Positions 4,645-55,057 of a stretch of DNA of 60,607 nt are shown piece after piece; positions within the stretch are counted from its first letter, which is position 1; every line of letters begins with the position of its first letter. Location: assembly GCF_004010195.1 (NCBI RefSeq), contig NC_057718.1, positions 101,821,908-101,882,514 on the forward strand, written 5' to 3'. The DNA is from Chiloscyllium plagiosum (lineage: Eukaryota). Under the pieces are notes generated by a model. The model saw only the letters and a program-made list of their open reading frames with translations, was not told the origin of the DNA and made no database searches. The translations under genes were made by a program, and so were the position numbers.

Positions 4645-5243
4645 ACAGAATCCCCACAGTGTGGAAACTGGCCATACCCAGACCCACCCTATCCCTGTAA
4701 CCTGAATTTCCCATGGCTAATCCACTTAGTCTGCACATCCCTGGATACTATGGGTAACTTAACTTGGTCAATCCACTTAACCTGCACATCTTTGGACTGT
4801 AGGAGGAAACCAGAGCACCTGGAGGAAACCCATGTAGACATGGGGAGGACATGCAAACTCCACACAGGCAGTTGCCCAAGGGTGGTATCAAACCTGGGTG
4901 TTTGGCACTGTGAGATAGCAGAGTCTAGATTAGAGAGATGCTAGAAAAGCACAGCAGTTCAGGCAGCATCCGAGGAGCGGTAAAATCGACGTTTCGGGCA
5001 AAAGCCCTTCATCGGGAATACAGGCAGAGAGTCTGAATGGCTGAAGCCTGACCCTTGAGGCTCTCTACCTGTATTCCTGATGAAGGGCTTTTGCCCGAAA
5101 CGTCGATTTTACTGCGCCTCGGATGCTGCCTGAACTGCTGTGCTTTTCCAGCACCACTCTAATCTAGACTCTGGTTTCCAGCATCTGCAGTCACTGTTTT
5201 TACCACTGTGAGATAGCAGTGCTAACCATTGAGCCATCGTGGC
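4645..5243 (-). mobile_element. HE1-type V-SINE, interrupted by a Penelope hairpin
   Basis: V-domain ...ggaggaaaccagagcacctggaggaaacccatg...; tRNA-like head resumes after the TSD. Confidence 0.88.
4922..5203 (+). mobile_element. Penelope-derived hairpin element (family A, subfamily matching the 3' end of the 19741-21800 element)
   Basis: ~110-bp inverted arms; tail ...ccagcatctgcagtcactgtttttac; 16-bp TSD CACTGTGAGATAGCAG at 4906-4921 and 5204-5219. Confidence 0.9.
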
Positions 5244-5353
5244 ACAGTTAACTTGAGCAACATCTGGCTAGACAAAGAACCAAGAGTTAATGCTCAAGCC
5301 AAGAATTCAGACATAAAATAGATTCTGAACCAGGGAGAGATGAGGATAGGAGA

Positions 5354-5651
5354 ACTGCTGCCTCACAGCGCCAGAGATCCAGGTTCAATTCCCGCCTCAG
5401 GCGACCGTGTGTGTGGAGTTTGCACATTCTCCCCGTGTCTGCGTGGGTTTCCTCCGGGTGTTCTGGTTTCCTCCCACAATCCAAACAATATGCAGGTTAG
5501 GTGAACTGGCCATGCTAAATTGTCCATAGTGTCAGGTGAAGGGGTAAATGTAGGGGTATGGGTCTGGGTGGGTTGCGCTTCAGCGGGTCGGTGTGGACTT
5601 GTTGGGCCGAAAAGCTGGTTTCCACACTGTAAGTAATCTAATCTAATCTAA
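5354..5651 (+). mobile_element. HE1-type V-SINE, slightly 5'-truncated
   Basis: B-box ggttcaattccc, V-domain, (TAATC)n tail. Confidence 0.92.
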
Positions 5652-10780: not shown

Positions 10781-11345
10781 ACATAGAACAATACAGCACA
10801 GTACAGGCCCTTCAGCCCTCGATGATGCGCCGGCCTTTTATCCTACTCTAAGATCAAGAGAAAGTGAGGACTGTCGATGCTGGAGATCAGAATCGAAAAG
10901 CACTGGAAAAGCACAGCAGGTCAGGTATAATCCGAGGAGCAGGACAGTTGATATTTCAGGCATAAGCCCTTCAGGAAGCTGAGACGTCGACTCTTCTGCT
11001 CCTTGGATGCTGCCTGACCTACTGTGCTTTTCCAGCGCCTCACTTTTTGACTATACTCTAAGATCAGACTAAACTACATACCCTTCATTATACTGTCTTC
11101 CATGTGCTTATCCAAGAGCCGCTTAAATGTCCCCAGTGTATCTGACTCCACTACCACCGCTGGCAGTGCATTCCACGCATGCTTCACTCTCTCCATAAAG
11201 AACCTATCTTTGACATTTCCCCTAAACCTTCCTCCAATTACCTTAAAATTGTAATTGTGATATGCATTTCCACCATGGGAAAAAGTCTCTGGCTATCCAC
11301 TCGATCTATGCCTCTCAATACCATGTACACCTCTATCAGGTCAGA
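10781..11345 (-). mobile_element. CR1 LINE 3' fragment (interrupted at 10857-11053)
   Basis: acatagaaca terminus; ggcagtgcattccac; tacacctctatcaggtc. Confidence 0.8.
10857..11053 (-). mobile_element. Older Penelope-derived hairpin element, family A
   Basis: Diverged arms with centre deletion; 13-bp TSD TACTCTAAGATCA at 10844-10856 and 11054-11066; inside a CR1 3' end. Confidence 0.85.
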
Positions 11346-15899: not shown

Positions 15900-16212
15900 A
15901 GATTAGATTACCTACAGATTAGATTACCTACAGTGTGGAAACAGGCCCTTCGGCCCAACAAGTCCACACCGACCCGCCGAAGTGCAACCCACCCATACCC
16001 CTACACCTAACACTACGGGCAATTTAGCATGGCCAATTCACCTGACCTGCACATCTTTGGACTGTGGGAGGAAATCGGAGCACCCGGAGAAAACCCACGC
16101 AGACACGGGGAGAATGTGCAAACTCCACAGTCAGTCGCCTGAGGCAGGAAATGAACCCGGGTCTCTGGCGCTGTGAGGCAGCAGTGCTAACCACTGTGTC
16201 ACCGCGCCGCCC
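15900..16212 (-). mobile_element. HE1-type V-SINE, full length
   Basis: Head gggcggcgcggtg, V-domain, tail with duplicated agattagattacctac. Confidence 0.93.
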
Positions 16213-19200
16213 ACCAAAGTGGAGTGGACAAAAATCTCAAACTAGTGAACTGCTGATGAACCACCACAATGACTGATGATATTCTCTGCGCCTGTTAATG
16301 GACTGCTATCAGATACGGTTACAGCATCTCAACACTCATTACAAATGGGATTTTTAAAAAAAACATTTCATATTAAGAAAATGAGATCAATGATATAGCA
16401 CCGAAAGCCTAGGAAAACATATTTTCATTACATGCCTTTTACCTTTACCAATGCTTTAGGCTATATCACCCTCATTTATCACAGGAACCCATTAGAGAAT
16501 CTGTTTGAAGTTTAGATGAGAAAAACTCAAACATTTCTGTAAATAGCTCACCGCATAAAAGCAGATGCTGCGATTTTAAAACCACACCAGTATCAATTAT
16601 ACTTTAAAATGTATGTGATTTTAAGAAGCAGCTGTAGCATCTAAAAATCCATCGGCAAATGTAAAAGAAGTTACTGAAGTAACACAGGAAAATTACATAC
16701 TAAAAACCTTAAATCTGGTTAATATATTTTCTGATCTTTTAACTGCAGTAATTTGCAAACAAAATATTCATACAAAATGTTTTTCTAGAAGCTTTTACAC
16801 AAGATTAAATTTTTTCCCAGGGTTAACGATGTTTTATATCCAATAATTCAACACCCAAATTAAAAACATTGTTTAAAAAAAAATCAATGGATGGTGAGAT
16901 TTCTTAACAGATACACTTTTAAACACATCAAATGTGTGGCATTTAGCAATCATTAGGTAGCTTTATGTTTAACCCCACAACAAGCTGAGAATTCCCATGC
17001 TAGCCTTGCATAAGTCAGCCACAAAGATATTTGAAGGGGGTCACATATTTAAAACAAAATTGCCGTAAACACAATAAAAATTTTGCAAGATGTCAGACAT
17101 TTTCCTAATATCAGCATATCTTGTGAAGTATACCACTGGATAATGGAATGCACAAAATTAAATATTTACTTATTTTTAGAAACTAGGTCTCATTTGGTGT
17201 CAGAATTTCTGACAAAAGTTTACCAGCCTGACATGTAAACCAGGTCCTCTCCATGATTGCGGCTAGACCAGATAACTATTTCCAGCAACTGTCTTTAATT
17301 TCAGTTTCCTAGCATTTGCAGTGTTTTACATCCATCTCTTATCTGGTCAAACCTTTCTCTTGAAGTTGAAACAAATTCACAATGCACATCTGTTTCACTA
17401 ATTAACAGCCCTTGGGGTAATATGGGACGAGTGGGTGTTCATAATAAGAAACAAATTGAAGGAATGGAGGTGGTGGTTTTTAACCTACATAATTGACACC
17501 CACTCAGACGTCTACATAAAATGAACTTTACCCTGTTATAAAATAAGATCAGTGGCAAAGAAGCTGCCCCCGCAAGTTATTAGGCAAACCTTTCTTCATT
17601 ATAAGTAGTCTGGAGCAATCTGAATAAATTCATGTTATTATCTTAAATAGGTTATCAGTTGGGAACTGCTGCATTAACATGAAAGCATATACCCTCTCCT
17701 CCCAAAGCTACAAGCAAGAAAATTCAATAAATTTCTGAGTCAACCGGAAGGAAGGGCTCAGTCCAGTACGGTGAAGGAGGAAGCAATGGACCATTTGCTC
17801 TGAATCACAATCTCAATACACAGGCAGTGCGTTACAAATGAACTAAGAAAAGGGCAAGTCAGATGAATTTTCATCACTGTGGGAAAATCAAAAAGTTAAA
17901 GTGAATGGATTATATTGGAAAAAGCCATTTGTAAACAAACAGTGAAACAACTGGTGGAACAGACTTAGAATTTAGTTATTATATACACATTATTCCTGAT
18001 AGGATGTGGTGATGTCAATGAGTAAGAAGCTTTAGAACTGGTTCTGAAAGGTCACTGGACTCTAAACATTAACTCTGCTTTCTCTCCACAGATGCTGCCA
18101 GACTGACTGAGTTGCTCCAGCAATTTCATTTTTGTTACAAATACTTTAGAAATGTATTTTCTATTTGTAAGAGTCAAAATGCAAGCAAAAAAGAACAATG
18201 GAATAATGACTACATAAATGGTTCCAATAATGCTAACTGAGTGATAAATATTGGTTAAGACACCAAAATGAGCTTCCCACTTCTTCAAGCTTAATGATAT
18301 GGAATCTTTTACATCAACCCAAGGTGACTAATGAGGCCTCAATTTAACATCTCATCCAAAAGATTGTAGCTCCAATAGCTGAACTCGAATCAAATGCTTA
18401 TTTTGCATGGAGGGTTGCTCAATAAAACTGACCATCCATCCTGATTCCATCAAGTTACAAAAATTATTTATTAAAAACCATTTCATCTACAACACTGGCT
18501 CCATCAATTTATCTGATGCTCACCAAATCAGCATCAATTGATTATTAAACCTCAGAATGCAGGTTGCTCATCTGATTTGTTTTATAATATATCTGGTGAG
18601 AGGACTTCAAGATCCTTATCTTCACTTTTAGTTCCAAAGCTTATTTCATTCAAGCTTAACTCAGCTATTTGTCCCAACATGCAGCCTCTACCTCTCAGCT
18701 TCCATTGCTCAATGGCCATTAGTCCTTTATACTTTAGAATGTGATCTCTAAATTGCTCTGTTCTGTCATCCTTTGAAAACCTTTGGTTTCACTGTGCCCG
18801 AGATCCATAACCGTTTCAATATCCTTTCAAATTGAGTCGACCTTTAGAAATACAAATAAAATCTCTTGCATTTGCATAAATCCTTGTTATGTATATTCTA
18901 CAATACACAGAGCATTTGGCTCAACTTATCCTTGCCACATTTTACATTTCTCACAGTTCTCCTATCACCCTTCCCCAACTATCAGACACGCCCCCCCCCC
19001 CCCCCCCCACGCTCACCCGCTTGCTTCCCATTTCCAACATCCTTTAATCATCATCCTTTAGATGGTTCTATAATATTCGACTCAATTACTGCCTGTGCTA
19101 TCAATTTGCACACTATCACCATTCTCAAGTAAACTTCTTCTGGTGATTTCTTGACTATGTTCTATTGATCATTTCCAGTTCTGTTCTATTATCTCATTGT

Positions 19201-19740: not shown

Positions 19741-21800
19741 ACCACCTCAACCTGTCGACCCCCCTCCCCCACTCCAACCTCTCACCCTCACAACGCGCAG
19801 CCCTCCAATCCCTCTGCTCTAATCCCAACCTCACCATTAAGCCAGCGGATAAAGGGGGCGCAGTGGTAGTCTGGCGTACTGACCTCCACGCCGCTGAAGC
19901 CAAACGCCAACTCGAGGACACCTCCTCCTCCTCCCCCTCGACCATGACCCCACCCCCCTTCACCAAACCATCATCTCCCAGACCATACAGAACCTCATCA
20001 CCTCAGGAGATCTCCCATCCACAGCTTCCAACCTCCTAGTCCGGGAACCCCACACTGCCCGGTTCTACCTCCTTCCCAAGATCCACAAGCCTGACCACCC
20101 TGGCCGACCCATTGTCTCAGCATGCTCCTGCCCCACTGAACTCAACTCTACCTACCTCGACACTGTCCTATCCCCCCTAGTCCAGGAACCCCCCACATAC
20201 GTTNNNNNNNNNNNNNNNNNNNNNNNNNNNNNNNNNNNNNNNNNNNNNNNNNNNNNNNNNNNNNNNNNNNNNNNNNNNNNNNNNNNNNNNNNNNNNNNNN
20301 NNNNNNNNNNNNNNNNNNNNNNNNNNNNNNNNNNNNNNNNNNNNNNNNNNNNNNNNNNNNNNNNNNNNNNNNNNNNNNNNNNNNNNNNNNNNNNNNNNNN
20401 NNNNNNNNNNNNNNNNNNNNNNNNNNNNNNNNNNNNNNNNNNNNNNNNNNNNNNNNNNNNNNNNNNNNNNNNNNNNNNNNNNNNNNNNNNNNNNNNNNNN
20501 NNNNNNNNNNNNNNNNNNNNNNNNNNNNNNNNNNNNNNNNNNNNNNNNNNNNNNNNNNNNNNNNNNNNNNNNNNNNNNNNNNNNNNNNNNNNNNNNNNNN
20601 NNNNNNNNNNNNNNNNNNNNNNNNNNNNNNNNNNNNNNNNNNNNNNNNNNNNNNNNNNNNNNNNNNNNNNNNNNNNNNNNNNNNNNNNNNNNNNNNNNNN
20701 NNNNNNNNNNNNNNNNNNNNNNNNNNNNNNNNNNNNNNNNNNNNNNNNNNNNNNNNNNNNNNNNNNNNNNNNNNNNNNNNNNNNNNNNNNNNNNNNNNNN
20801 NNNNNNNNNNNNNNNNNNNNNNNNNNNNNNNNNNNNNNNNNNNNNNNNNNNNNNNNNNNNNNNNNNNNNNNNNNNNNNNNNNNNNNNNNNNNNNNNNNNN
20901 NNNNNNNNNNNNNNNNNNNNNNNNNNNNNNNNNNNNCAGGAACTGTAAAACCTGCGCCCACACCTCCTCCCTCACCTCTATCCAAGGCCCTAAAGGAGCC
21001 TTCCACATCCATCAAAGTTTTACTTGCACATCCACTAATATCATTTATTGTATCCGATGCGGTCTCCTCTACATTGGGGAGACTGGGCGCCTCCTAGCAG
21101 AGCGCTTTAGGGAACATCTCCGAGACACGTGCACCAATCAACCAAACCCCCCCGTGGCACAACATTTCAACTCCCCCTCCCACTCTGCCGAGGACATGGA
21201 GGTCCTGGGCCTCCTTCCCCGTAGCTCCCTCACCACCAGACGCCTGGAGGAAGAACGCCTCATCTTCCACCTTGGAACACTTCAACCCCAGGGCATCAAT
21301 CGCCGCTCCCTCACCACCAGACGCATGGAAGAAGAAAGCCTCATCTTCCGCCTCAGAACACTTCAACCCCAGGGCATCGATGTGGGCTTCAACAGCTTCC
21401 TCATTTCCCCTTCCCTCACCTCATCCTAGTTTCTAACCTCCAGCACCCCCATCTCATCCTAGTTTCAAACCTCCAGCTCAGCACTGTCCCTTGTCTTGTC
21501 CGGACTTGAACGACCTGCCTAGCTCCTTTTCCACCTATCCACACCACCCTCTCCTCCCTGACCTATCGCCTTCATCTCCTCCCCCACTGGCCTGTTGTGC
21601 TCTGTGCTGCTCTCTCCCCACCCCCACCCTCCTCTAGCTTATCTCTCCAAGCTTCAGGCTCACTGCCTTTATTCCTGATGAAGGGCTTTTGCCCGAAACG
21701 TCCATTTTGAAGCTCCTCGGATGCTGCCTGAACTGCTGTGCTCTTCCAGCACCACTGATCCAGAATCTGGTTTCCAGCATCTGCAGTCATTGTTTTTACC
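19741..21800 (+). mobile_element. Penelope-like retroelement (Neptune-like), 5'-truncated and degenerate: RT N-terminal part, gap, CxxC + GIY-YIG endonuclease, 3' terminal repeat
   Basis: Translates to IKPADKGGAVVVW and FYLLPKIHKPDHPGRPIVS before the gap; CKTC, IIYCIRC, LYIGETGRLLAERFREH after it; 3' repeat with CTGATGAAGGGCTTTTGCCCGAAACGTC at 21675-21702. Confidence 0.9.
20204..20936. other. Assembly gap (733 N)
   Basis: Run of N inside the Penelope-like element. Confidence 1.
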
Positions 21801-22105
21801 TTGTCAGTTTAATATAACAACTGGAAAAATAAAAAAAGCTGGATGGCTTTTATTTGGAAACTTAGAAATTCTGATGAAAGATCATCTCGATCTGAAATAT
21901 TAAACTTTGTTTCTCTCCCAACAGGTGCTGCCAGACCTACTGTCTAGTTTCAGAAACCTTTGTCTTTATTTCAGGTATCCGTATTGCAGTATTTTACTTT
22001 TATATAAAACAAAGCTGATTAACAACTACTGATACAAGATTCTCTAGACATTTTTCTCTAAGCTAATCAAAAATTCATAAATGAAGCAATTTATCAAATT
22101 TATGC

Positions 22106-22326
22106 AAAAACAGAAGTAGTTGCTGGAAGAGCTCAGCAGGTCTGGCAGTATCAGTGAAGAGAAATCAGAGTTAACGTTTTAGGTGCTCAGAACCATTCTG
22201 AGGAAGGGTCACTGGACCAGAAATGTTAACTCTGATTTCTCTTCACCGACGCTGCCAGACCTGCTGAGACTTTCCAGCAACTTCTGTTTTGTTTCCAATT
22301 TACAGCATCTGCAGTTCTTTGGGTTT
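22106..22326 (+). mobile_element. Old Penelope-derived hairpin element
   Basis: Inverted arms (aaaacagaag...ttaacgttt / aaatgttaac...cttctgtttt), degenerate CTGAGGA...GAAA core, cagcatctgcag tail; flanks ttatcaaatttatgc / ttattaaattaaagc resemble a decayed TSD. Confidence 0.75.
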
Positions 22327-22584
22327 TATTAAATTAAAGCTTGAATGAAAATATCAGAAACAAGCAGTGTGCACCCTGAGGTTAAACATTTCACATCCGA
22401 AGCCATAATTTCTATTAATCCATGAAGCACATCTTATATGCAGTCATTGACTCAACAACTAGTTTTAATTTTCTCTTGACAAATAATTACCATTTCAATT
22501 AGCAACACAGTAGATAATGGGGGTACTGTAAATTGCATTGTAATGTTTTCTCACCATCCCTCCCCTCAAAAAATGTTGCATTTG

Positions 22585-25397: not shown

Positions 25398-25706
25398 GAT
25401 TAGATTAGATTCCCTGCAGTGTGGAAACAGGCCATTCAGCCCAACAAGCCCACACCGACCCTCCGAACAGTGACCCACCCAGATCAATTTCCTTCTGCCT
25501 AACTTATCTATCTCTATAGGCAATTTAGTATGGCCAATTCACATGATCTACACATCTTTGGACAGTGGGGGGAAGCTGCAGCACCCGGAGGAAACCCACG
25601 CAGACATGGGGAGACCATGCAAACTCCACACAGACAGTTGCCAGAGGGTGGAATCGAACCGGGTCCCTGGCGCTGTGAGGCAGCAGTGCTAACCACTGAG
25701 CCATCA
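25398..25706 (-). mobile_element. HE1-type V-SINE
   Basis: tggctcagtggttagcac A-box, ggttcgattcc B-box, V-domain, (TAATC)n tail. Confidence 0.9.
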
Positions 25707-25908: not shown

Positions 25909-27353
25909 CTGCCAGGCACAACAAAAGTAGTATTACAGACCCAAATAAATAAATTTCTCCGCATTTAATCTACTTTCCACAGATGCACAGCAGTTAGATG
26001 GAAAACAGGTTCATCTGGATCACTGGCTATTAAAAGAGATTCCATAGCTGCCTAGTTATTTAAGTTCACATTAGGTGGTTACTCTATCATAACAGGAGAA
26101 GTGGGCCAAGCACCCCTTGAGCACACCCCACCATTTCCTGAGACCATGTCAGATCTCATCATAACCTCAACTCTACTACCCTGTCCACACAGCCATAGCT
26201 CTTGATAAATGTTGATGTACAAGATACTTAATAATCCAGTCTCCCTTCTCTCTGGGGAACACCTCAGAGAGAAAAAAATCCTCATCTCAGTCTTAAACGG
26301 ACAATCACATTTTTGTTTGTTCTGGACTCGTGGATGTCATCTCAGCATCCATGATGACCTTGATTTACATTAAAATTTCATAAAAGCATAAACCATGGGA
26401 TAAGCACCGAAGACTCAGAAGAATGTTTCATGTGTGTCTGGACAGAGGCATAGTTGCTACTGCAAGAGTTAGGAAAATAAAATCCCAGTAACCACTCGAA
26501 TTTAAACGCAGGTTCTGGATATGGTATCATTCTGTTATCATTCTGGTTCTGAACAGGCTGCAGTTAAAAATTGTGAGTTTAAATGGCAATGCAGAAGAAA
26601 TGGAAATACTTTTTGAGATCTCCACAGTGACAAACACTTGGAATTACCACACTTCATCTAAATCGCCACACAACCCATCATTAAAAAAAAGATGCACAAC
26701 TATTAATAGAGGGCAGTTCAGCATCAACCACACTTTGTGGATTTGGAGTTACACAAAGGCTAGACTGGGTAAGGATAACAGATCCATTTCTCTATCGATC
26801 ATTAGAGATTAGCTTTCAATTTCAGATTTTTAAAAAATATACCTCAGTGCTATGGTGGGAATTGAACACAGGCTCCACAGCATTAACCAATGGAATGATT
26901 GGATCACCATGAAGGTAGATAAAATGGTGACTGATGAGTATTCAATTCAAACAGAGTTATGTTATTTATGTTGTGAACGTGCAATTCTGTGAAGTTCTCA
27001 TTGCTATTAGATGTATGCTGGCCAATTTTTTTTTTGCGAATTCATTAACTAAGAATAGTTTCTTCCACTGGCATGCTTTCTCTAACTGTTGAGACTTTTC
27101 TCTGCCAACTTGTGTTTTTTCACCTTGATGAAACAGATCTAAAACACAGCATTCAAAGATTTGCAATGAAACATTCCTAACTGAGAACCAGAGGGCACAA
27201 CCCGAGAGTGAGGGGACCACCCTTTAGAACGGAGGAGGAATTTCTTTAGCCAGAGTGTGGTGAATCTATGGTACTCATTGCCACAGAAGGCTGTGGAGGT
27301 CAAGTCATTGAGTGAATTTAAGATAGAGATAGATTGGTTACTATCAAGAACCT

Positions 27354-27579
27354 GTGAGGAGAAAGTGAGGTCTGCAGATGCTGGAGATCAGAGCTGAAAA
27401 TGTGTTGCTGGAAAAGCGCAGCAGGTCAGGCAGCATCCAGGGAACAGGAGAATCGACGTTTCGGGCATAAGCCCTTCTTCAGCCCTTCCTGAAGAAGGGC
27501 TTATGCCCGAAACGTCGATTCTCCTGTTCCCTGGATGCTGCCTGACCTGCTGCGCTTTTCCAGCAACACATTTTCAGCT
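27354..27579 (-). mobile_element. Penelope-derived hairpin element, family A
   Basis: Perfect 91-bp inverted arms 27392-27482/27489-27579 plus ~36-nt tail; TSD TACTATCAAGAACCT at 27339-27353 and 27579-27593. Confidence 0.9.
27455..27516. ncRNA. Back-to-back hammerhead motifs, one per strand
   Basis: CTGAAGA-A-GGGC-TTAT-GCCC-GAAA-CG-TC at 27489-27516 (+) and its mirror at 27455-27482 (-). Confidence 0.6.
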
Positions 27580-28573
27580 ACTATCAAGAACCTATCAAGG
27601 TTTACAGGGTGAAGGCAGGAGAATGGGATAGAAAAACATATCAGTCATGACTGAATAGTGGATCAGACTCAATGGGCCGAATGGCCTAATTCTGCTCCTA
27701 TACCTTATGACCTTACGTGGAAGTGAACTAATAATATTAAACTGTATGCAGATATTTAGCAAAGTTTATTCCTGAATCAACTGAGACTCAAAATGTGCTT
27801 TGAAAAGCTTCATTTGAGAGGTTTTTCCTCCCTTCATTTAAAGTTTACATTTTCCACATTAAAAACAAACTTATTTGGCCATAACATGCTTTATTCCCCC
27901 ACTGGTCTTTGTATCTTGGAGGTTTTCACATGAAGGATTCAACTTACAAAGGAGAGGACTTGGGTTGATAATAGTGACAAAATGTGACTCTGCATTGGTG
28001 AAAAATAAACCAAGGATGTGCAGTGCACATTTCCCAAGGTGCATCAGCAGAATTTACCTAACCAAACAGAATAACAGTTTCTAATAACTCTCTTTCTGGC
28101 TTTGTTACTACAAGTACTTCGAGAAAGCCATGTTTCAAATTTTAAAATTTAAAACAATGCAAAGGTTCTGCACATGAAATTAGATCATAAAAAGAGAGAG
28201 CCTACTGCAGCTTCTGTTTAGTATTTTAGTAGAAAGGGATACTATACCACATTCATAAATGTTATTTGTGACTTACATTAGGTAAAGACATGAAGGATAT
28301 AAAATCAAAACAGAATATAAAAAAGACAGAATGCATGGTTTTAAAGATGGAAACTAAATTACAATCACACCTGAATAAATTGTCCAAAACTTTCTAATCC
28401 TGCTTCAGATGTAGCTCACGTTTGATCAGATCTCTTTTTTAAATTTCACGAACAGTTTTACATTCACAGTTGGATTGTGCATGTGATGTAAATTCAGTAC
28501 AGTTTATTTCATTAGTGTATTGAAATATTTTTCCAATAACAAAAGGAGTATATACAAGCAAAACAGTACTTAC

Positions 28574-30800: not shown

Positions 30801-31773
30801 GTATGTTTAACCAATTGTCCAATACAGAAATGTTATCTCAGAAATATTACAGCAGTCAATGCTTTGCAACCAAAAATATTACTTCCTTACTGTTTCAAAT
30901 GCAGTTTCATGAGATTAACAAAGTGCTTTGGATAGTTTGGATTGCATTGACACCAAAATTAAGAGAGAGAATATCATATAATAGGCATTTTATTAAAGAT
31001 TTTAAATTAAAGTCTCTAATAAGAAAGTAATATTTCACATTAAACCAGATAATCAATACAAGCTTCTTTTTTAAAAAAAAGGTCTGGTTAGTTTTAATGC
31101 AGTGAATTCTAGTTCACTGAAGAATCAGATAAACTAACTGAAAACAAAGTCCAGTTCTGAAGAAGTCGCATCAAAGTTGACAGGTTAACTGTCTGTCTCT
31201 CCGTCTTTTTCCACAAAACTGGGCCAGACCAGAGTTTCTCCAGCAGCTTTATTATTTTAGGTGGATTAAGTACACCTTAGCACCACAGACCTGCTGCATA
31301 TTACTGGACTCCTAATGCTAGCAGCTACACAGTTATGTTCCAAACACATTATTTTTAAATCTCACCCATAGGCTCAGCTAAAGCCATAAAAGAAAAACTT
31401 GGCTGCCACCTAGAGTTGAAACAATAAAATTGGAAATGTTTTTAAGAATTATTAATCATGATCAAGAGTGGATTTCATCCAAGAGAAAAGTTTCTTAATT
31501 AGGTTTATAATTCTACAAAGCTAAAATCAGCTCCATTAATTTCTTCCGGAAGGGTCATTACTGCAGCCCCATTATCCCTGCAACAATCCACAAAAAAGAA
31601 GCAACTTCTGTAAGCCAAACTCAATGAGTATAAATGATTTAGCCATTAGTTGTACAACTCAATTAGTCCTGGAGGTTACCACAATGTAATAAAGCAATTA
31701 AAAATGGTAACCAGGAGCCCTTTTCCCTCCAAAAATAAAAATGAATTACCAATTCAAAAGATTTAAAACTAAC

Positions 31774-31949
31774 CTGATTCCCCTGAGCAAGTAAAGCCTT
31801 CAGTCGTGCTATTTCAGCACGTAGCTCACGAATAAGTTTGACATTAGAATCTTCATTAATGGTAGGTTTGTTAATGATGTTTTTAGCTCTGTTTGCATAG
31901 CGAAGGGTACTCAATGTTTCTCCATAATTGACATCCGCAGGTGAAATGG
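31774..31949 (-). CDS. KIF16B: KIF16B exon 10 (176 nt), motor end and neck
   Basis: ttggtag|(T)[58 protein letters not shown]|gttagt. Confidence 0.97.
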
Positions 31950-32163
31950 CTACCAATAAAGGATAACAAAAAATAATAAAGTGTTGAATGAACACTTGTA
32001 TTCACCACATTTTTATATTAGACATACCTGAAAGAAAACAAAATTTGTGGCACAACCCGCATTGGACTGATATACCATTAGGTGTTTGCAAGGTTTGTGA
32101 AGGTTTGTAGCTCAGGTTGAGGTTTAGCATGTAGGTTTGCTCGCTGAGCTGTAGGTTTGTTAT

Positions 32164-32203
32164 CCAGACGTTTCATTACATGGCTAGGTAACATCATCAG
32201 TGG
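32164..32203 (-). ncRNA. Minimal type-I hammerhead ribozyme motif (sense in KIF16B pre-mRNA)
   Basis: CCA-CTGATGA-TGTTACC-TAGCCA-TGTAAT-GAAA-CG-TC-TGG: complete core, 3-bp stem I, near-absent stem III as in Penelope-element hammerheads; activity untested. Confidence 0.65.
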
Positions 32204-32825
32204 CGACCTCCAAGTGAAGCGAAGCTGTTGTCTCCTGCTTTCTATTTATATCTTTCTCCTGGATGGGGTTCCTGGGGTTTGTGGTGATGTCATTTCCTGT
32301 TTGTTTTCCGAGAGGTTGATAGATGGTATCTAGATCTATGTGCTTGTTTATGGCGTTGTGGTTGGAGTGCCAGGCCTCTGGGAATTCTCTGGCATGTCTT
32401 TGCTTAGCCTGTCCCAGGATAGATGTGTTGTCCCAGTCGAAATGGTGGGTTTTTTTCCTCCGTGAGTAGGGCTACGAGGGAGAGAGGGTCGTGTCTTTTT
32501 GTGGCTAACTGGTGTTCGTGTATCCTGGTGGCTAACTTCCTTCCTGTTTGCCCTCGTAGCCCTACACACGGAGGAAAAAAACACCATTTCAATTGGGACA
32601 ACACATCTATCATGGGACAGGCTAAGCAAAGACATGCCAGAGAATTCCTAGAGGCCTGACACTCCAACCACAACGCCATAAACAAACACATAGATCTAGA
32701 AACCATCTATCAACCCCTCAGAAAACGAACAGGAAATGACATCACCACAAACCCCAGGAACCCCATCCCGGACAAACATATAAATAGAAAGCAGGAGACA
32801 ACAGCTTCGCTTCACTTGGAGGTTT

Positions 32826-32865
32826 CCACTGATGATGTTACCTCGCTAGGTAATGAAAAGTCTGG
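32826..32865 (+). ncRNA. Minimal type-I hammerhead ribozyme motif
   Basis: CCA-CTGATGA-TGTTACC-TCGCTA-GGTAAT-GAAA-AG-TC-TGG. Confidence 0.6.
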
Positions 32866-34005
32866 ATATCAAACCTACAGCTCAGCGAGCAAACCTACAC
32901 CCTACAACATTCGGTGTGGACTGACATAACATGAAGGTGAATTTCACAACCAGTGGCAAAACAATGGTGGTTGCCACTGACCTCGATGATATCTAAATGT
33001 CCTCCAGTAGTGTGGATTTGTCCTTTGTTGACCTCAAGGGCTTCATGAATCTCATGTATTGTCACACACTGGCCACTTCCATTACGAAGTTAAACTAACT
33101 GGCAAACTGAATGCAGAGAAAGCCTTAAATTTTTAACAATAAAAAATAGCCCCGGTATGGAACAGGTTACATGCAGGAGAATTCAAAGCAAGTTAGATCT
33201 TGCAATCAGGATGGCATCTATAACTTCAAAATAATGGTCAAGACATGCACTAGTGTCTCTGATCTATGCAAGAGATGTCAACACAAGAACAAACCATTAA
33301 ATTTCCAGACACCAATGAAATGAGCATGGGGGAAATGACTGGTATTGTGTTGTATGGTTTCGATCTATTATACTACAGCAAGACAAAGATGAATTGCAAT
33401 TTAACACTCAAACAAATACAAAATTTTCTAACATCTGTGTATACTTCTATAGCGCCATTAAGGCTCTTTAGAGGAGCCATGTCAAGCACTGTCTGACATT
33501 GAGCTTCTGAGGCAATATTATTAGGTTTGGTAACAAAAGTTTGGTCAGAAAAGCAGATTTTGAGGAATGTTTGGCATGGAGAGTGAGAGAAAAAATAATA
33601 CTGGGATAGATAGGTAGTACAGTTAAACCATATGCAAAGTAAGTCATCCTGAGGTTTTACAATCACTAGTTTGTGCAGATTTGGAGATGAGAAATTCTGG
33701 TTGATACACTCTTGGGCATTAGAGAAAGGGGTACTGGATAGTCATCTAAATTGTTGTACCCAAATACATAGTGGATCAGTCATCAAACATCAGAAAAATT
33801 AAAGTTGTATCTGAAAGGTGTCTTACAGATTCTTTGATTATCCCTTAGCAAAATGTCCCACTGCATTTCACAGTGTAAAAAGCAATATATAAATAGAAGT
33901 CATTATTATTCAACAGTATAAGTAAGATTAACCTGGAAAAAAAATTCAAGGTAGTCAAATTAGTAAGCCTTGGGACCAGGGAAGGGTAATGCTCAAGAAG
34001 TCCTT

Positions 34006-37740: not shown

Positions 37741-39787
37741 CATAGAATCATAGAGATGTGCAGCATGGAAACAGACCCTTCGGTCCAACCCGTCCATGCC
37801 GATCAGATACCCCAGCCCAATCTAGTCCCACCTGCCAGCACCCGGCCCATATCCCTCCACACCCTTCCTATTCATATACCCAGCCAGATGCCTTTTAAAT
37901 GTTGCAATTGTACCAGCCTTCACCACTTCCTCTGGCATTCATTCCATACACGTACCATCCTCTGCGTGAAAAAGCTGCCCCGTAGATCTCTTTTATATCT
38001 TTCCCCTCTCGCCCTAAACTTAGTTCTGGATTTCCCCACCCCAGGGAAAAGACTGTCTATTTATCTATCCATGCCCCTCATGATTTTATAAACCTCTAGA
38101 AGGTGACCCCACATCCTCCGACACTCCAGAGAAAAAAGCCCTAGCCTATTTAACTTCTCCCTATAGCTCAAATCCTCCAACACTGGCAACATCCTTGTAA
38201 ATCTTTTCTGAACCCTTTCAAGTTTAACAACATCTTTCCGATAGGAAGGAGACCAGAATTGCACGCAACATCCCAACAGTAGCCTGACCAATGTCCTGTA
38301 CAGACACAACATGACTTCCTAACTCCTGTACTCAATTTTCTGACCAATAAAGGAAAGCATACCAAACACCACCTTCACTATCCTATCTACCTGCAACTCC
38401 ACTTTCAAGGAGCTATGAATCTGCACTCCAAGGTCTCTTTGTGCAGCAACACTCCCTAAGACCTGACCATTAAGTGTATAAGTCCTGCTGAGATTTGCTT
38501 TAACAAAATACCACACCTCACATTTATCTAAATTAAACTCCATCTGCCACTCCTCAGCCCAAATGATTAAGATCCCGTTGTAATCAGAGGTAACCTTGTT
38601 CACTGTCCAGTACACCTCCAATTTTGGTGTCATCTGCACTTACTAACTATACCTCTTATGCTCACATCCAAATCGTTTATACAAATGATGAAAAGTCGTG
38701 GCACTCCACTGGTCACAGGCCTCCAGTCTGAAAACAACCCTCCACCACTACCTTCTGTCTCCTACCATCGAGCCAGTTCTGTATTCCATGAGAACTAACC
38801 TTGCTAACCAGTCTCCCATGGGGAACCTTGTGGAATGCCTAACAGAAGTCCATATAGATCACATCTATCGCTCTCCCCTCATCAATCCCCTTTGTTACTT
38901 CTTCAAAAAACTCAATCAAGTTCATGAGACATGATTTCCTACATACAAAGCCATATTGGCTATCCCTAATCAGTCCTTGCCTTTCCAAATACATGTCCAT
39001 CCTGTCCCTCAGGATTCCCTCCAACACGGGGTGGCATGGTGGCTCAGTGGTTAGCACTGCTGCCTCACAGCACCAGGGTCCCAGGTTCAATGTCAGCCTC
39101 AGATGACTGTCTGTGTGGAGTTTGCACATTCTCCCAGTGTCTGCTTGGGTTTCCTCCGGGTGCTCCGGTTTCCTCCCACAGTCACAAAGATGTGCAGGTT
39201 AGGTGAATTAGCCATGCTAAATTGCCCATAGTGTTAGGTGCATTAGTCAGAGGGAAATGGGTCTAGATGGGTTACTCTTCGGAGGGCCAGTGTGGACTGA
39301 TTGGGCCGGATGGCTTGTTTCCACACTGTAGGGAATCTAATCTAAAAAACAATTTGCTTATTGGTATGTAGTTCCCTGGCTTGTCCTTACCATCCTTCTT
39401 AAACAGTGGCACCACGTTATCCAACCTCTAGTTCTCCGGCACCTCACCTGTGACTATTGATGATACAAATATCTCAGTAAGAGGCCCAGCAATTGCTTCC
39501 CTAGCTTCCCACAGAGTTCTAGAGTACACCTGATCAGGTCCTGGGGATTTATCCACTTTTTATGTGTTTCAAGACATTCAGCACTTCCTCCTCTGTAATA
39601 TGGACATTTTTCAAGATGTCACCATCCATTTCCCTACATTCTGTATCTTCCTTGTCCTTTTCCACAGTAAAGACTGATGCAAAATACTCATTTAGTCTCT
39701 CCCCCATCTCCTGCGGCTCCACACAAAGGCCACCTTGCTGATCTTTGAGGGACCCTATTCTTTGCCTAGTTACCCTTTTGTCCTTAT
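37741..39787 (-). mobile_element. CR1-clade LINE (HER1-like), 5'-truncated ORF2 RT and 3' end
   Basis: LIRDSQYGF..SCLMNLIEFFEEVT..DVIYMDF, ADDTKIGG, YRTLVR..CVQFWSP; 3' terminal ctatgattctatg repeat; frameshifted. Confidence 0.92.
39028..39346 (+). mobile_element. HE1-type V-SINE inserted in a CR1 LINE
   Basis: Full head and tail; interrupts the CR1 RT coding sequence. Confidence 0.92.
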
Positions 39788-42815: not shown

Positions 42816-43127
42816 CAGCACGGTGGCACAGCAGTTAGCACTTCTGCCTCACAGCGCCAGAGACCTGGGTTCAATTCCCGTCTCAGGCGACTGACTGTGT
42901 GGAGTTTGCACATTCTCCCCGTGTCTGCGTGGGTTTCCTCCGGGTGCTCCAGTTTCCTCCCACAGTCCAAAGATGTGCAGGTCAGGTGAATTGGCCATGC
43001 TAAATTGTACGTAGTGTTAGGTAAAGGGGTAAATGTAGGGGAATGGGTGGGTTGCGCTTCGGCGAGTCGGTGTGGACTTGTTGGGCCGAAGGGCCTGTTT
43101 CCACACTGTAAGTAATCTAATCTAATC
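42816..43127 (+). mobile_element. HE1-type V-SINE
   Basis: Near full length, (TAATC)n tail. Confidence 0.93.
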
Positions 43128-44561: not shown

Positions 44562-45680
44562 AAACACAGAAACAATGAAAATAGCTACAGGAGTAGGCCA
44601 TTCAGCCCCACAAGCCTGCACCACCATTCAAATTGACCATGGCTGATCATACAATTTCTGTCACCCACTCCCTCTTTCTCTCCATATCCCTTGAGCCCTT
44701 CAGCCACGAGGGCCACATCCAGTTCCCTCCTGAATATATCTAATGAACTGGTCCCAAAAGCTTCCTGTGGTAGAGAATTCCACAGGTTCACAACTCTTCC
44801 TCATCTTAGTCCTAAATGGTTTACACCTTATTTTAGACTGTGAACCCTAGGTCTGGACTTCCCCAACATTGGGAACATTCTTCTCACGTCTAGCCTGTCC
44901 AGTCTCACCCATCAGGTATTTATGATTCTATGAGAGGAGAAAGTGAGGGCTGCAGATGCTGGAGATCAGAGCTGAAAATGTGTTGCTGGAAAAGCGCAGC
45001 AGGTCAGGCAGCATCCAAGGAACAGGAGAATCGACGTTTCAGGCATAAGCCCTTCTTCAGGAAAGCCCTTCCTGAAGAAGGGCTTATGCCCGAAACGTCG
45101 ATTCTCCTGTTCCTCGGATGCTGCCTGACCTGCTGCGCTTTTCCAGCAACACATTTTCAGCTATGATTCTATGAGATTCCCCCCTCAGTTCTGCCATCCC
45201 AGGAATCATTCTGATGAGCCTTCGATAGATTCCCTCAGTAGCAAGAATGTCCTTCCACAGACTAGGCGACCAATACTACACACAATATTCAAGATATGGC
45301 CTCACCAAGGCCCTCTTTAACTGTAGCAAAATATCCTTCTTCCTATACTTAAATTACTACAGCATGCCATTAGCTTTCCTCAACACCCGCTGAACCTGCA
45401 TGCCAACCTTCTGCGACCGTTCCACCATGACACCCAAGTCTTGTTGCACTTCAACTTTTCCTAAACTGCCACCATGCAGATAGTCCTGTTTTTACCAAAG
45501 TGTATAATGTCACATTTATCCATATGTTATATTTGCCAAGTATTTGCCCACTCAGCTAGCCTGTCCAAGTCACCCTGCAGTCTGTTAGCATTCTCCTCAC
45601 AGCACACACTGCCACCCAGCTTAGTGTCATCTGCAAATTTAGAGATACTGCATTCAATTCCTTCATCCAAATCATTAATT
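44562..45680 (-). mobile_element. CR1 LINE 3' fragment (interrupted at 44934-45162)
   Basis: [11 protein letters not shown] (gtgtcatctgcaaatt at ~45624); NLWNSLPQEA. Confidence 0.85.
44934..45162 (-). mobile_element. Penelope-derived hairpin element, family A
   Basis: Same arms and tail as the 27354 copy; 13-15 bp TSD TATGATTCTATGA(GA) at 44921 and 45162; sits inside a CR1 fragment. Confidence 0.9.
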
Positions 45681-46799
45681 GAACCCTGCTGTATTCAATG
45701 ACTGTATTGATGTATCCAATTATTTCACTTTCCTGTTGTTATTTATGTAAACCTTAAAACAAAGTCTAGCAAAACAGTAGCTCAATTAGCAAAACATATT
45801 TGGCACATCTATGTGGAATAGAAGATTTCTAGGGCACTGAATGAATCCTAAGGTAGAGGAAGCTCAAAATAGACAGCATCTAAACCAAACTGATACCAAT
45901 GTTCTCACTGAGAGGTAAATAATGCAGTATTGGTAGAGTTGAACTAGCCAAGGCTGATAAAGAAGAAAATCAGAGCTTACAGAGAGTAAAGTCAATTGCA
46001 TAACAAAACAATAGAGTCAAAATAGTCACCCTAGTGAGGGAGTGATAATATATACTTTAGGAAAATTTGACATAGCTCAAGGAGAGCCAACGTAAGGGTA
46101 AGAAAACAAAAAGAAGGGAAAAAGACCACTTGACGTTTGAATGTCAGGGCAAATGAAATATTGAACAAAGAACCAAACTGAATTGGAAAGAGCTGATGCT
46201 GCAGTCTTGATGAAAACTTTCTGGCAGGTTAGGAATAACTAAGGTCATAACTCTGAACAACAAATTTTCAGTAAAGACAAATGTATTATTACTAAAAGTG
46301 GAGTTAAACCACTAGAAAATTTACCATGTCTGTTTCAGCTGAGGTAAGAGATAATAAAAGACCCAATTGCCATATTAGGAGCACAATCAAAACCACCAAA
46401 TAGTGAGAAAACAGGAGGATGAATTGCATATACAATTTTGAAAGGTTTCTGCGACAACTTTTATTTGTACTGTTCTTTGATCAAAAACATCCCAACGCAA
46501 TTCACTGGAACATCATAAAACAAAATACCGCTGAGGTGCAAAGGGATAGCAAACTGGATAATCAAAAACCTGATCAAAAAAGTAGGATTTAAGGAGGAAC
46601 ACAGGGTAAAGAGACGTTACTTTAAAGGTATTCACTTTTATGCATTAAGGAGGTATACACTTGTTTTTTGCGAAGAATATATTAAAACAAGCCTTGAAGC
46701 CCTAGTCAAACTACATCATTTAATATCAAATTGGGGAAGGCTCAATCCACAAGCTTTGTACTGTGCCTATGCCACTAGACTCGGGTATTGGAAAATATA

Positions 46800-47028
46800 G
46801 AGGAGAAAGTTAGGACTGCAGATGCTGGAGATCAGAGCTGAAAATGTGTTGCTGGAAAAGCGCAGCAGGTCAGGCAGCATCCAAGGAACAGGGGAATCGA
46901 CGTTTCGGGCATAAGCCCTTCTTCAGGAAGGGCTTTCCTGAAGAAGGGCTTATGCCTGAAACGTCGATTCTCCTGTTCCTTGGATGCTGCCTGACCTGCT
47001 GCGCTTTTCCAGCAACACATTTTCAGCT
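46800..47028 (-). mobile_element. Penelope-derived hairpin element, family A
   Basis: Same arms and tail; 14-bp TSD TATTGGAAAA(T/G)ATA at 46786-46799 and 47028-47041. Confidence 0.9.
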
Positions 47029-47082
47029 ATTGGAAAAGATAACCAATATACTTATCCCATTTGACTATCACAAAGTTCTTAC

Positions 47083-54617: not shown

Positions 54618-54959
54618 GATTAGATTAGATTAGATTAGATTAGATTAGATTAGATTACTTACAGTGTGGAAACAGGCCCTTCGGCCCAACAAGTCCACAC
54701 CGACCCGCCGAAGCGCAACCCACCCATTACCCTACATTTACCCCTTTTACCTAACACTACGGGCAATTTAGCATGGCCAATTCACCTGACCTGCACATTT
54801 TTTGGACTGTGGGAGGAAACCGGAGCACCCGGAGGAACCCCACGCAGACACGGGGAGAATGTGCAAACTCCACACAGTCAGTCGCCTAAGTCGGGAATTG
54901 AACCCGGGTCTCCGGCGCTGTGAGGCAGCAGTGCTAACCACTGTGCCACCGTGCCGCCC
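54618..54959 (-). mobile_element. HE1-type V-SINE, full length, with (GATTA)8 tail
   Basis: Head gggcggcacggtggcacagtggttagc; CpG-rich so probably young; tail 54618-54657. Confidence 0.94.
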
Positions 54960-55057
54960 ACTTGGAGTAAACTGGCTTGGTGAATGGAAACTCTGGTGTT
55001 TCACACTCCAGGATGTAACATACTGTAATGATAAATTTAAAAGTAACTGCGAGCATA

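Follow-up and report, generated by a model that had tools for sequence, protein, structure and literature searches.

Introduction

The closest described relatives of the structures reported here are the insertions of endonuclease-positive Penelope-like elements. As set out in the portions of PMC8557442 and PMC3846280 drawn on here, their unit is composed of a pLTR, an adjacent inverted copy truncated at its 5' end and a tail of 30–40 bp. The element ends lie head-to-head, the tail is one-sided, the target is duplicated, a hammerhead is contained in the terminal repeat and a small palindrome is found at the inverted junction, all of which recur at the locus described below. The tail was found "at either end" of insertions (PMC8557442), and host DNA captured between pLTRs, with duplications, is also on record (PMC3846280). 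Endonuclease resolution is given as the source of the tail in the former, and self-priming on an antisense template is argued for in the latter; both accounts differ from twin priming and count against the explanation favoured below. The completion of an insertion, with its inverted copies and a tail on one side only, is described as "undefined" in PMC8557442 and is unvalidated in PMC11167929. The latter work, in the sections cited here, presents the Poseidon element of Anolis carolinensis in vitro: both target strands are cut and extended, two reverse transcription start sites bound the tail, as would be the case at the present locus, and the same start sites are used on either strand. A dimer is predicted, and the hammerhead is situated near the 5' part of the template, likewise the case here. 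Second-strand synthesis and repair are proposed there to follow by steps that are not validated, and the joining of two first strands is not treated in those sections.

Minimal hammerheads of metazoan Penelope-like elements are characterized, in the excerpted parts of PMC4209133, by CUGANGA, an extra base, a G-C closing pair of helix II, GAAA, a palindromic CG for helix III and UC, and they occur as pairs on opposite strands 100–700 bp apart. Two further systems are relevant to palindromes with invertible centres. In the AAV ITRs the unpaired part of the hairpin exists in reverse-complementary forms, flip and flop, and these terminal hairpins act as primers of DNA replication, their resolution being brought about through nicking by Rep (PMC11575299, as far as cited here). 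Replication template switching can invert a loop completely between stems that stay intact, at times with an accompanying stem change, and the cases treated in the corresponding part of PMC8794818 are later mutations at one locus.

Here we describe a window of 60,607 nucleotides from Chiloscyllium plagiosum (contig NC_057718.1, positions 101,821,908 to 101,882,514), in which a first-pass annotation had pointed out two palindromes with oppositely oriented hairpin loops. The architecture of such insertions is already published and known in Penelope-like elements. Our literature search, which covered few subscription papers, returned no relevant paper on a Penelope flip, twin priming or shark palindromes, and no description of a directional junction patch in Penelope insertions.

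Results

Two palindromic insertions with reverse-complementary centres in the assembly

Two elements of 229 nt, copy A (44934–45162) and copy B (46800–47028), are each composed of a left tail, two inverted arms of 94 nt and a loop of 5 nt (Table 1). The arms differ from one another by 2 mismatches in A and likewise in B. The centre of copy A reads CAGGAA-AGCCC-TTCCTG (45058–45074) and that of copy B CAGGAA-GGGCT-TTCCTG (46924–46940), which is its exact reverse complement, while the tail is on the left in both. The assembly thus bears out what the first-pass annotation had read from the letters. For a randomly drawn 5-mer, the probability of being reverse-complementary to the other loop is 1/1024, and three chance substitutions were rejected as the source of the difference. 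The annotation was also correct that a stem variant changes arms together with the loop: the variant at a CpG position is 45041 A in the left arm of A and 46957 T in the right arm of B. This co-switch rests on that one site, and its chance is, as a rough estimate, about 1 in 10.

Across the 193-nt palindrome, A and B show 7 differences in their assembled orientation versus 2 with B inverted. The longest exact match between them is 135 nt in inverted orientation (A 44970–45104, B 46894–47028), corresponding to the left arm of A, the loop and the inner right arm, versus 77 nt on the same strand. An inversion of the intervening DNA is ruled out by the target-site duplications, which are in place as the annotation had stated. 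A third young copy, C, lies at 27.4 kb. Among the six young arms, 13 of 15 pairs differ at 2 sites, the identical pairs being the two arms of C, and A-left with B-right; the young copies each carry 1 difference per arm from the common letters.

Table 1. Positions of the palindromic insertions and their parts in the window.
Feature	Position	Strand	Remarks
Copy A left target-site duplication	44921..44935	+	15 nt exact; last 2 nt equally assignable to the element
Copy A one-sided tail, ~36 nt, sense-strand 3' end	44934..44969	-	Most loose read ends at 44934–44936; left junction in X1 contig
Copy A tail-bearing arm, 94 nt	44970..45063	-	Minimal hammerhead core (predicted) 45033–45060; CpG variant 45041 A; equals B right arm
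Patch source AAGCCCTTC (stem-II region)	45047..45055	+	Repeated exactly at 45063–45071
Copy A loop AGCCC (tail-less strand: GGGCT)	45064..45068	+	Differs from natural upstream sequence
Copy A tail-less arm, 94 nt	45069..45162	+	Hammerhead core (predicted) 45072–45099; variant 45115 C; right junction in X1 contig
Copy A right target-site duplication	45162..45176	+	15 nt exact versus left
Copy B left target-site duplication	46786..46799	+	14 nt, 1 mismatch versus right
Copy B one-sided tail	46800..46835	-	Variant 46811 T
Copy B tail-bearing arm, 94 nt	46836..46929	-	Hammerhead core (predicted) 46899–46926; variant 46893 G
Copy B loop GGGCT	46930..46934	+	On tail-bearing strand
Copy B tail-less arm, 94 nt	46935..47028	+	Hammerhead core (predicted) 46938–46965; CpG variant 46957 T; equals A left arm
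Copy B right target-site duplication	47028..47041	+	
Copy C (27.4 kb)	27339..27593	-	15-nt exact duplications 27339–27353 and 27579–27593; tail on left
Copy C arms	27392–27482 (tail arm, 91 nt); 27486–27579 (tail-less arm)		Mutually identical over 91 nt
Three older head-to-head insertions	4906–5219; 10844–11066; 22090–22335		One-sided tails; 11–16-nt duplications
Older insertion, different Penelope-like family	32063–32932		Arms ~358 nt; tail on left; 16-nt duplication with 2 mismatches

In A, B, C and the 10.9-kb copy, the duplications all start with TA at the tail-less end (TAT, TAT, TAC and TAC, respectively). A nick preference is a possible reason, although the first T could instead be the last base of the arm. 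Just beyond the right duplication of A, at 45177, an X1 contig lacks 1 base relative to the window.

Affiliation with Penelope-like elements

In copies A and B, the end of a Penelope-like retroelement that carries the hammerhead is inserted in head-to-head arrangement. Four of the five features that define the endonuclease-positive Penelope-like insertion unit are found in these copies, namely an inverted 5'-truncated copy beside the terminal repeat, a one-sided tail in the 30–40-bp range (~36 nt in A, B and C), a target duplication and a minimal hammerhead motif. They depart from the published units, as described in the cited parts of PMC8557442 and PMC3846280, in that both element copies are cut to 94 nt and contain no ORF, and in that a fixed 5-nt junction patch present in both directions is not described there. 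The duplications of 14–15 bp are longer than the 8–10 bp given for Penelope-like elements of Adineta in the same portions of that literature. As regards the fifth feature, a parent element that encodes RT and a GIY-YIG endonuclease, copies A, B and C are all devoid of ORFs, and the window does not contain the ORF of the young subfamily itself. An older relative with ~81% similarity occurs at 21672–21786, downstream of a frame with a weak match to GIY-YIG (E 0.0027; 18.4 bits versus a cut-off of 22.6).

Core boxes of the predicted hammerhead were recognized in all six young arms on comparison by eye with the features of PMC4209133. This prediction gives helix II a length of 4 bp and helix I one of just 2 bp, and the closing pair of helix II is G-U in 2 of the 6 arms. 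A search of Rfam at the gathering threshold gave 0 matches, and the hammerhead shape was not obtained in predicted monomer folds (z 0.56 and -0.16). A non-LTR retrozyme was considered as another hammerhead-bearing candidate and rejected: this class requires hammerheads in head-to-tail tandem repeats (10.64898/2026.07.22.740005, definition as cited), and the copies here are single and head-to-head with no tandem array. Exact-pattern scans of metagenome contigs, prokaryote genomes and viral contigs gave no match.

The reads considered are those of runs X19–X21 (raw reads) together with the X1 contigs, and the low-share runs X12–X14 and X22–X24 were left out. The family is very abundant, as 107,856 of 12,895,792 reads in X19 fit a 341-nt stretch at 90% or better. 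Depth in X19 amounts to ~40,000 over the tail, which is slightly more than half of the summed mid-arm depth of ~73,000; a ratio near one half would be produced by a majority of insertions with two arms and a single tail.

The anatomy bears on the likeness to parvoviral terminal hairpins that the first-pass annotation had drawn, according to which a nickase would open a closed terminal hairpin and copying would move it to the other strand, so that flip and flop alternate. The presence of two reverse-complementary forms of the unpaired part is shared with AAV (PMC11575299, in the part cited), and this end pattern is the only point in favour. The hairpins here are internal and bounded by the 14–15-bp duplications, the arms are ends of a retroelement, and neither the priming of DNA replication nor resolution by Rep nicking known from AAV is seen. 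No Pfam match to a Rep/HUH family was obtained in 16 frames (15 of the 21 listed and the gap-free part of one, with 5 that run through an N gap left out), and no unique sequence resembling a resolution site was identified beside the stem; a nickase may still be encoded elsewhere. We regard a transfer of this kind as having next to no probability.

Origin of the loop

Raw reads that do not fit beyond 45063 or 45069 number 25,129 in X19, 23,584 in X20 and 24,598 in X21, and the majority of them continue into a different sequence that they share. This shared continuation is the natural upstream part of the element, and the loop is therefore not inherited flank. Instead, the loop with its neighbours forms AAGCCCTTC, a 9-nt exact repeat of 45047–45055 in the stem-II region of the hammerhead. 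Only 8 of the 1024 possible loops would give a copy of arm sequence of at least 9 nt. It is likely that the loop was templated from the element's own stem II and was added at the joining of two DNA copies during insertion. A strand-switch step, which the first-pass annotation had listed among its possible explanations, is supported by the loop's exact match to stem II and its difference from the natural upstream sequence.

On the opposite strand, the finished end followed by GGGCT is the product expected if the last GAA pairs with TTC 8 nt upstream and is then extended. The predicted energy of the snapped-back finished end is -3.9 kcal/mol, versus -4.0 kcal/mol for the best fold, and an 8-bp hairpin of -8.6 kcal/mol is predicted once GGGCT has been added. 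A snap-back of the finished first strand would most simply account for the copy in the loop. Why it should stop after 5 nt is unexplained, and this counts against the explanation set out below.

Many types of centre are present in the raw reads. T is found at 45064 in 213 of 649, 184 of 688 and 202 of 671 reads (X19–X21, respectively), and loop-sized insertions and deletions are represented by 6–54 reads per type and run. C>G changes in the mapped reads are reported at 3–4 places per run, as counts without positions. A joint between 44997 and 45076, in which the tail arm is cut short, is supported by 10, 5 and 9 reads, the longest of which include the tail. Asymmetry between the arms occurs both ways, the tail arm being shorter in copy C and in the 44997–45076 reads and longer in three older copies.

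In copy C, the tail-less strand carries the full end and GGGCT and then rejoins 5 nt further on than the form in A. The copy has the letters of another abundant subfamily, whose tail letter T is present in 12,253 of 40,620 reads at 44949 (X19). The annotation had taken this copy to be the AGCCC form minus 5 nt, which is formally correct; given its other subfamily letters, the junction may be a separate one, so that C may either have arisen from the A form by deletion or represent another event of this kind.

A proposed route to both loop orientations

Inside the 14–15-bp duplication, the insert terminates on either side in a 3' end of the element, which bears the tail on one side and lacks it on the other. 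As both ends look like starts of reverse transcription, either strand could carry the patch, and the loop could consequently come to lie as flip or flop with respect to the tail. The published occurrence of the tail at either end of Penelope insertions (PMC8557442) also leads one to expect a centre whose orientation varies with respect to the tail. Our leading explanation, which we hold tentatively and to which we give somewhat less than an even chance, is that the loop was added by a template switch while two first-strand cDNAs were being joined, and that its direction relative to the tail was set by the strand that carried the patch.

In such a scheme, one first-strand cDNA would be primed at each target nick. 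The protein would nick and extend both strands, beginning at one of two start sites between which the tail makes the difference, as the in vitro behaviour of the Anolis element would support, and synthesis of both cDNAs would end at nearly the same place, a short distance upstream of the hammerhead core. A finished end (..CAGGAA) could then snap back on TTC 8 nt upstream, or pair with the same TTC of its partner, whereupon the paired end would copy GGGCT, be released and pair with the end of the partner. The strand undergoing the snap-back would be chosen independently of the tail. In A and C the patch would have been placed on the strand without the tail, in B on the one with it, and the loop itself need not have flipped at all. 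If so, the directional junction patch marks which strand did what during insertion, and its direction relative to the tail across copies bears directly on the equivalence of the two first strands.

The exact inverted match over 135 nt suggests in addition that one centre of the A/B pair may have been copied from its neighbour, in the cell or by the assembler. For this pair we favour the variant in which the later insertion would have closed its centre by copying the neighbour's palindrome, 1.9 kb away, in reverse, a process that would also hand over the CpG variant. It would agree with the 135 nt of inverted versus 77 nt of same-strand identity and with the equality of A-left and B-right where 13 of 15 arm pairs differ. 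Had the two centres arisen independently, one junction form would have to have appeared twice, together with an identical CpG change on the corresponding arm, for which our rough estimate is about 1 in 100; the coincidence is removed by three routes, namely neighbour sealing, a palindromic master resolved through a heteroduplex, and filling by the assembler. On the other side, the neighbour route rests on the loop and one CpG site, and no local source was found within 5 kb for the centre patches of two older copies. Dividing the likelihood of the template-switch explanation roughly, we place slightly more of it on a neighbour-templated centre than on two centres made independently, each of these being improbable when taken singly. 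A neighbour-templated centre would add to the cases in which Penelope junctions draw on a local template.

A further observation counts against the template switch in either form. All three young copies share one class of centre, yet reads that cross the centre are few: letters at 45064 are recorded in 649–688 reads per run, versus ~24,000 that continue into different sequence. This scarcity may reflect drop-out of hairpins in short-read libraries, or collapse.

The palindromic master just mentioned would be transcribed together with its loop; the cDNAs would cross the loop and anneal by their arms, and the heteroduplex, with mismatches in the loop and wherever the arms differ, would be repaired or replicated to flip or flop at about 1:1. 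Put more generally, a palindromic non-coding Penelope derivative would spread as a unit, each insertion passing through a duplex of two cDNAs without second-strand synthesis, with the mismatched loop fixed 1:1. The loop would then be a built-in strand marker and the first in vivo footprint of the finish of Penelope-like integration. We consider both formulations rather unlikely, and to the same degree. The master route predicts that the whole centre and the arm variant are inverted with respect to the tail, in keeping with 2 differences inverted against 7 in the assembled orientation, and the reads that fit over their entire length number 894, 925 and 899 in the three runs; these must cross the short centre and so point to many loci. 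Such whole-fitting reads, however, lump the full loop with forms 5 or 16 nt shorter, and the centres in the raw reads are diverse. Copy C has identical arms with other subfamily letters, so one master cannot cover all three copies. A 94-bp RNA stem would, moreover, probably bury the region that the protein needs in vitro, to judge from PMC11167929.

We think it more improbable still that the loop, together with 23 nt or more of stem, was inverted after insertion, by a replication template switch, by the arm-to-arm recombination that the first-pass annotation had also raised, or by gene conversion from the neighbour. Loop inversion through inter-strand template switching is documented, with 69 loop-only cases in rRNA genes in the section of PMC8794818 used here, and the stems in A and B, at 94 bp with 2 mismatches, also speak in its favour. 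The likeness to those cases, in which the loop is likewise fully inverted between intact stems, is limited by the fact that A and B are two separate insertions and that the loop itself is an insertion patch. With 1 difference per arm from the common letters, the copies are young and have had little time; an inversion within one copy requires that the centre and the variant were already common to A and B; and the source of the patch is left unaccounted for.

Support for the assembled centres

The template-switch explanation presupposes that the centre of B is assembled correctly, and the orientation of its loop rests on the assembly because no listed read or contig row phases the loop to the tail, which we count against it. 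One centre could have been walked the wrong way through the hairpin path, or filled with reads from the neighbour, so that the loop and the nearby variant would flip together. A shared block of 135 nt is the outcome expected from pooling the reads of two neighbours, and for A and B together a k of 136 is needed before no k-mer repeats. A 733-N gap in another Penelope copy of the window suggests short-read scaffolding. Structures of this kind are said to trouble short-read assemblies in the relevant portion of PMC8557442, and palindromes are under-represented in PCR-based libraries according to PMC4057610, which cites unpublished observations.

Each locus taken singly, on the other hand, is resolved at a k of 48 (A) or 58 (B). 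Both copies possess letters of their own near the centre, 45115 C in A and, in B, 46893 G, which lies 94 nt inward of the left junction and is separated from the loop by 36 nt; locus-specific reads thus reach about as deep as the distance of the loop from the right flank (99 nt). Copy C has a different centre, and both junctions of A are present in X1 contigs, although no X1 contig bridging the centre of A was found, with contig counts that are incomplete. No alternative letters at 45065–45067 occur among the 40 rows listed, from which we infer that the GGGCT junction class is probably present in the reads.

On mapping, tail-bearing reads of the flop form would show G, G and T at 45064, 45066 and 45068, respectively. 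With a simulated flop copy, G was recorded at 45064 in 21–36 of ~130–142 informative read starts, and a 1:1 mixture would give 5–9%. The G/G/T combination is absent among the 40 rows listed of 250, where the lowest listed share is ~11% as against the 5–9% expected at 1:1, and this absence speaks neither for nor against the isomers. On balance, we judge the isomerism to be probably real and an assembly artefact to be appreciably less likely, if still the strongest single competitor of the template switch. Should the artefact apply, it would serve as a warning that the centres of short palindromic repeats in this assembly are unreliable.

Older insertions and other features of the window

Four older insertions in the window, at 4.9, 10.9, 22.1 and 32 kb, are also arranged head-to-head with target duplications (Table 1). 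The first three have centres with short patches similar to parts of their own arms, and in the two older copies that were checked no local source of at least 10 nt for the centre patch was found within 5 kb. In the insertion at 32 kb, the tail arm extends ~70 nt further at the centre. All three older asymmetric copies (10.9, 22.1 and 32 kb) have the longer arm on the tail side, and this lean in the same direction hints that the two strands are not equivalent.

A long Penelope-like copy occupies 19900–21800 and is interrupted by the 733-N gap (20204–20936). To the right of the gap it encodes a GIY-YIG-like region in which 81 nt are duplicated in tandem, and beyond this lies its hammerhead end.

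The frame at 31666–32001 on the minus strand matches the end of a kinesin motor domain and a kinesin-associated domain, below the cut-off, and has an apparent exon end. With this kinesin-like exon at ~31.7–32.0 kb, the insertions may lie in introns, possibly of a kinesin-3-type gene.

Copies of a SINE-like repeat that end in GATTA-type units are located at 5351–5648, 15900–16214, 25400–25703, 39029–39347, 42818–43127 and 54618–54961. These may resemble the HE1 SINEs of sharks.
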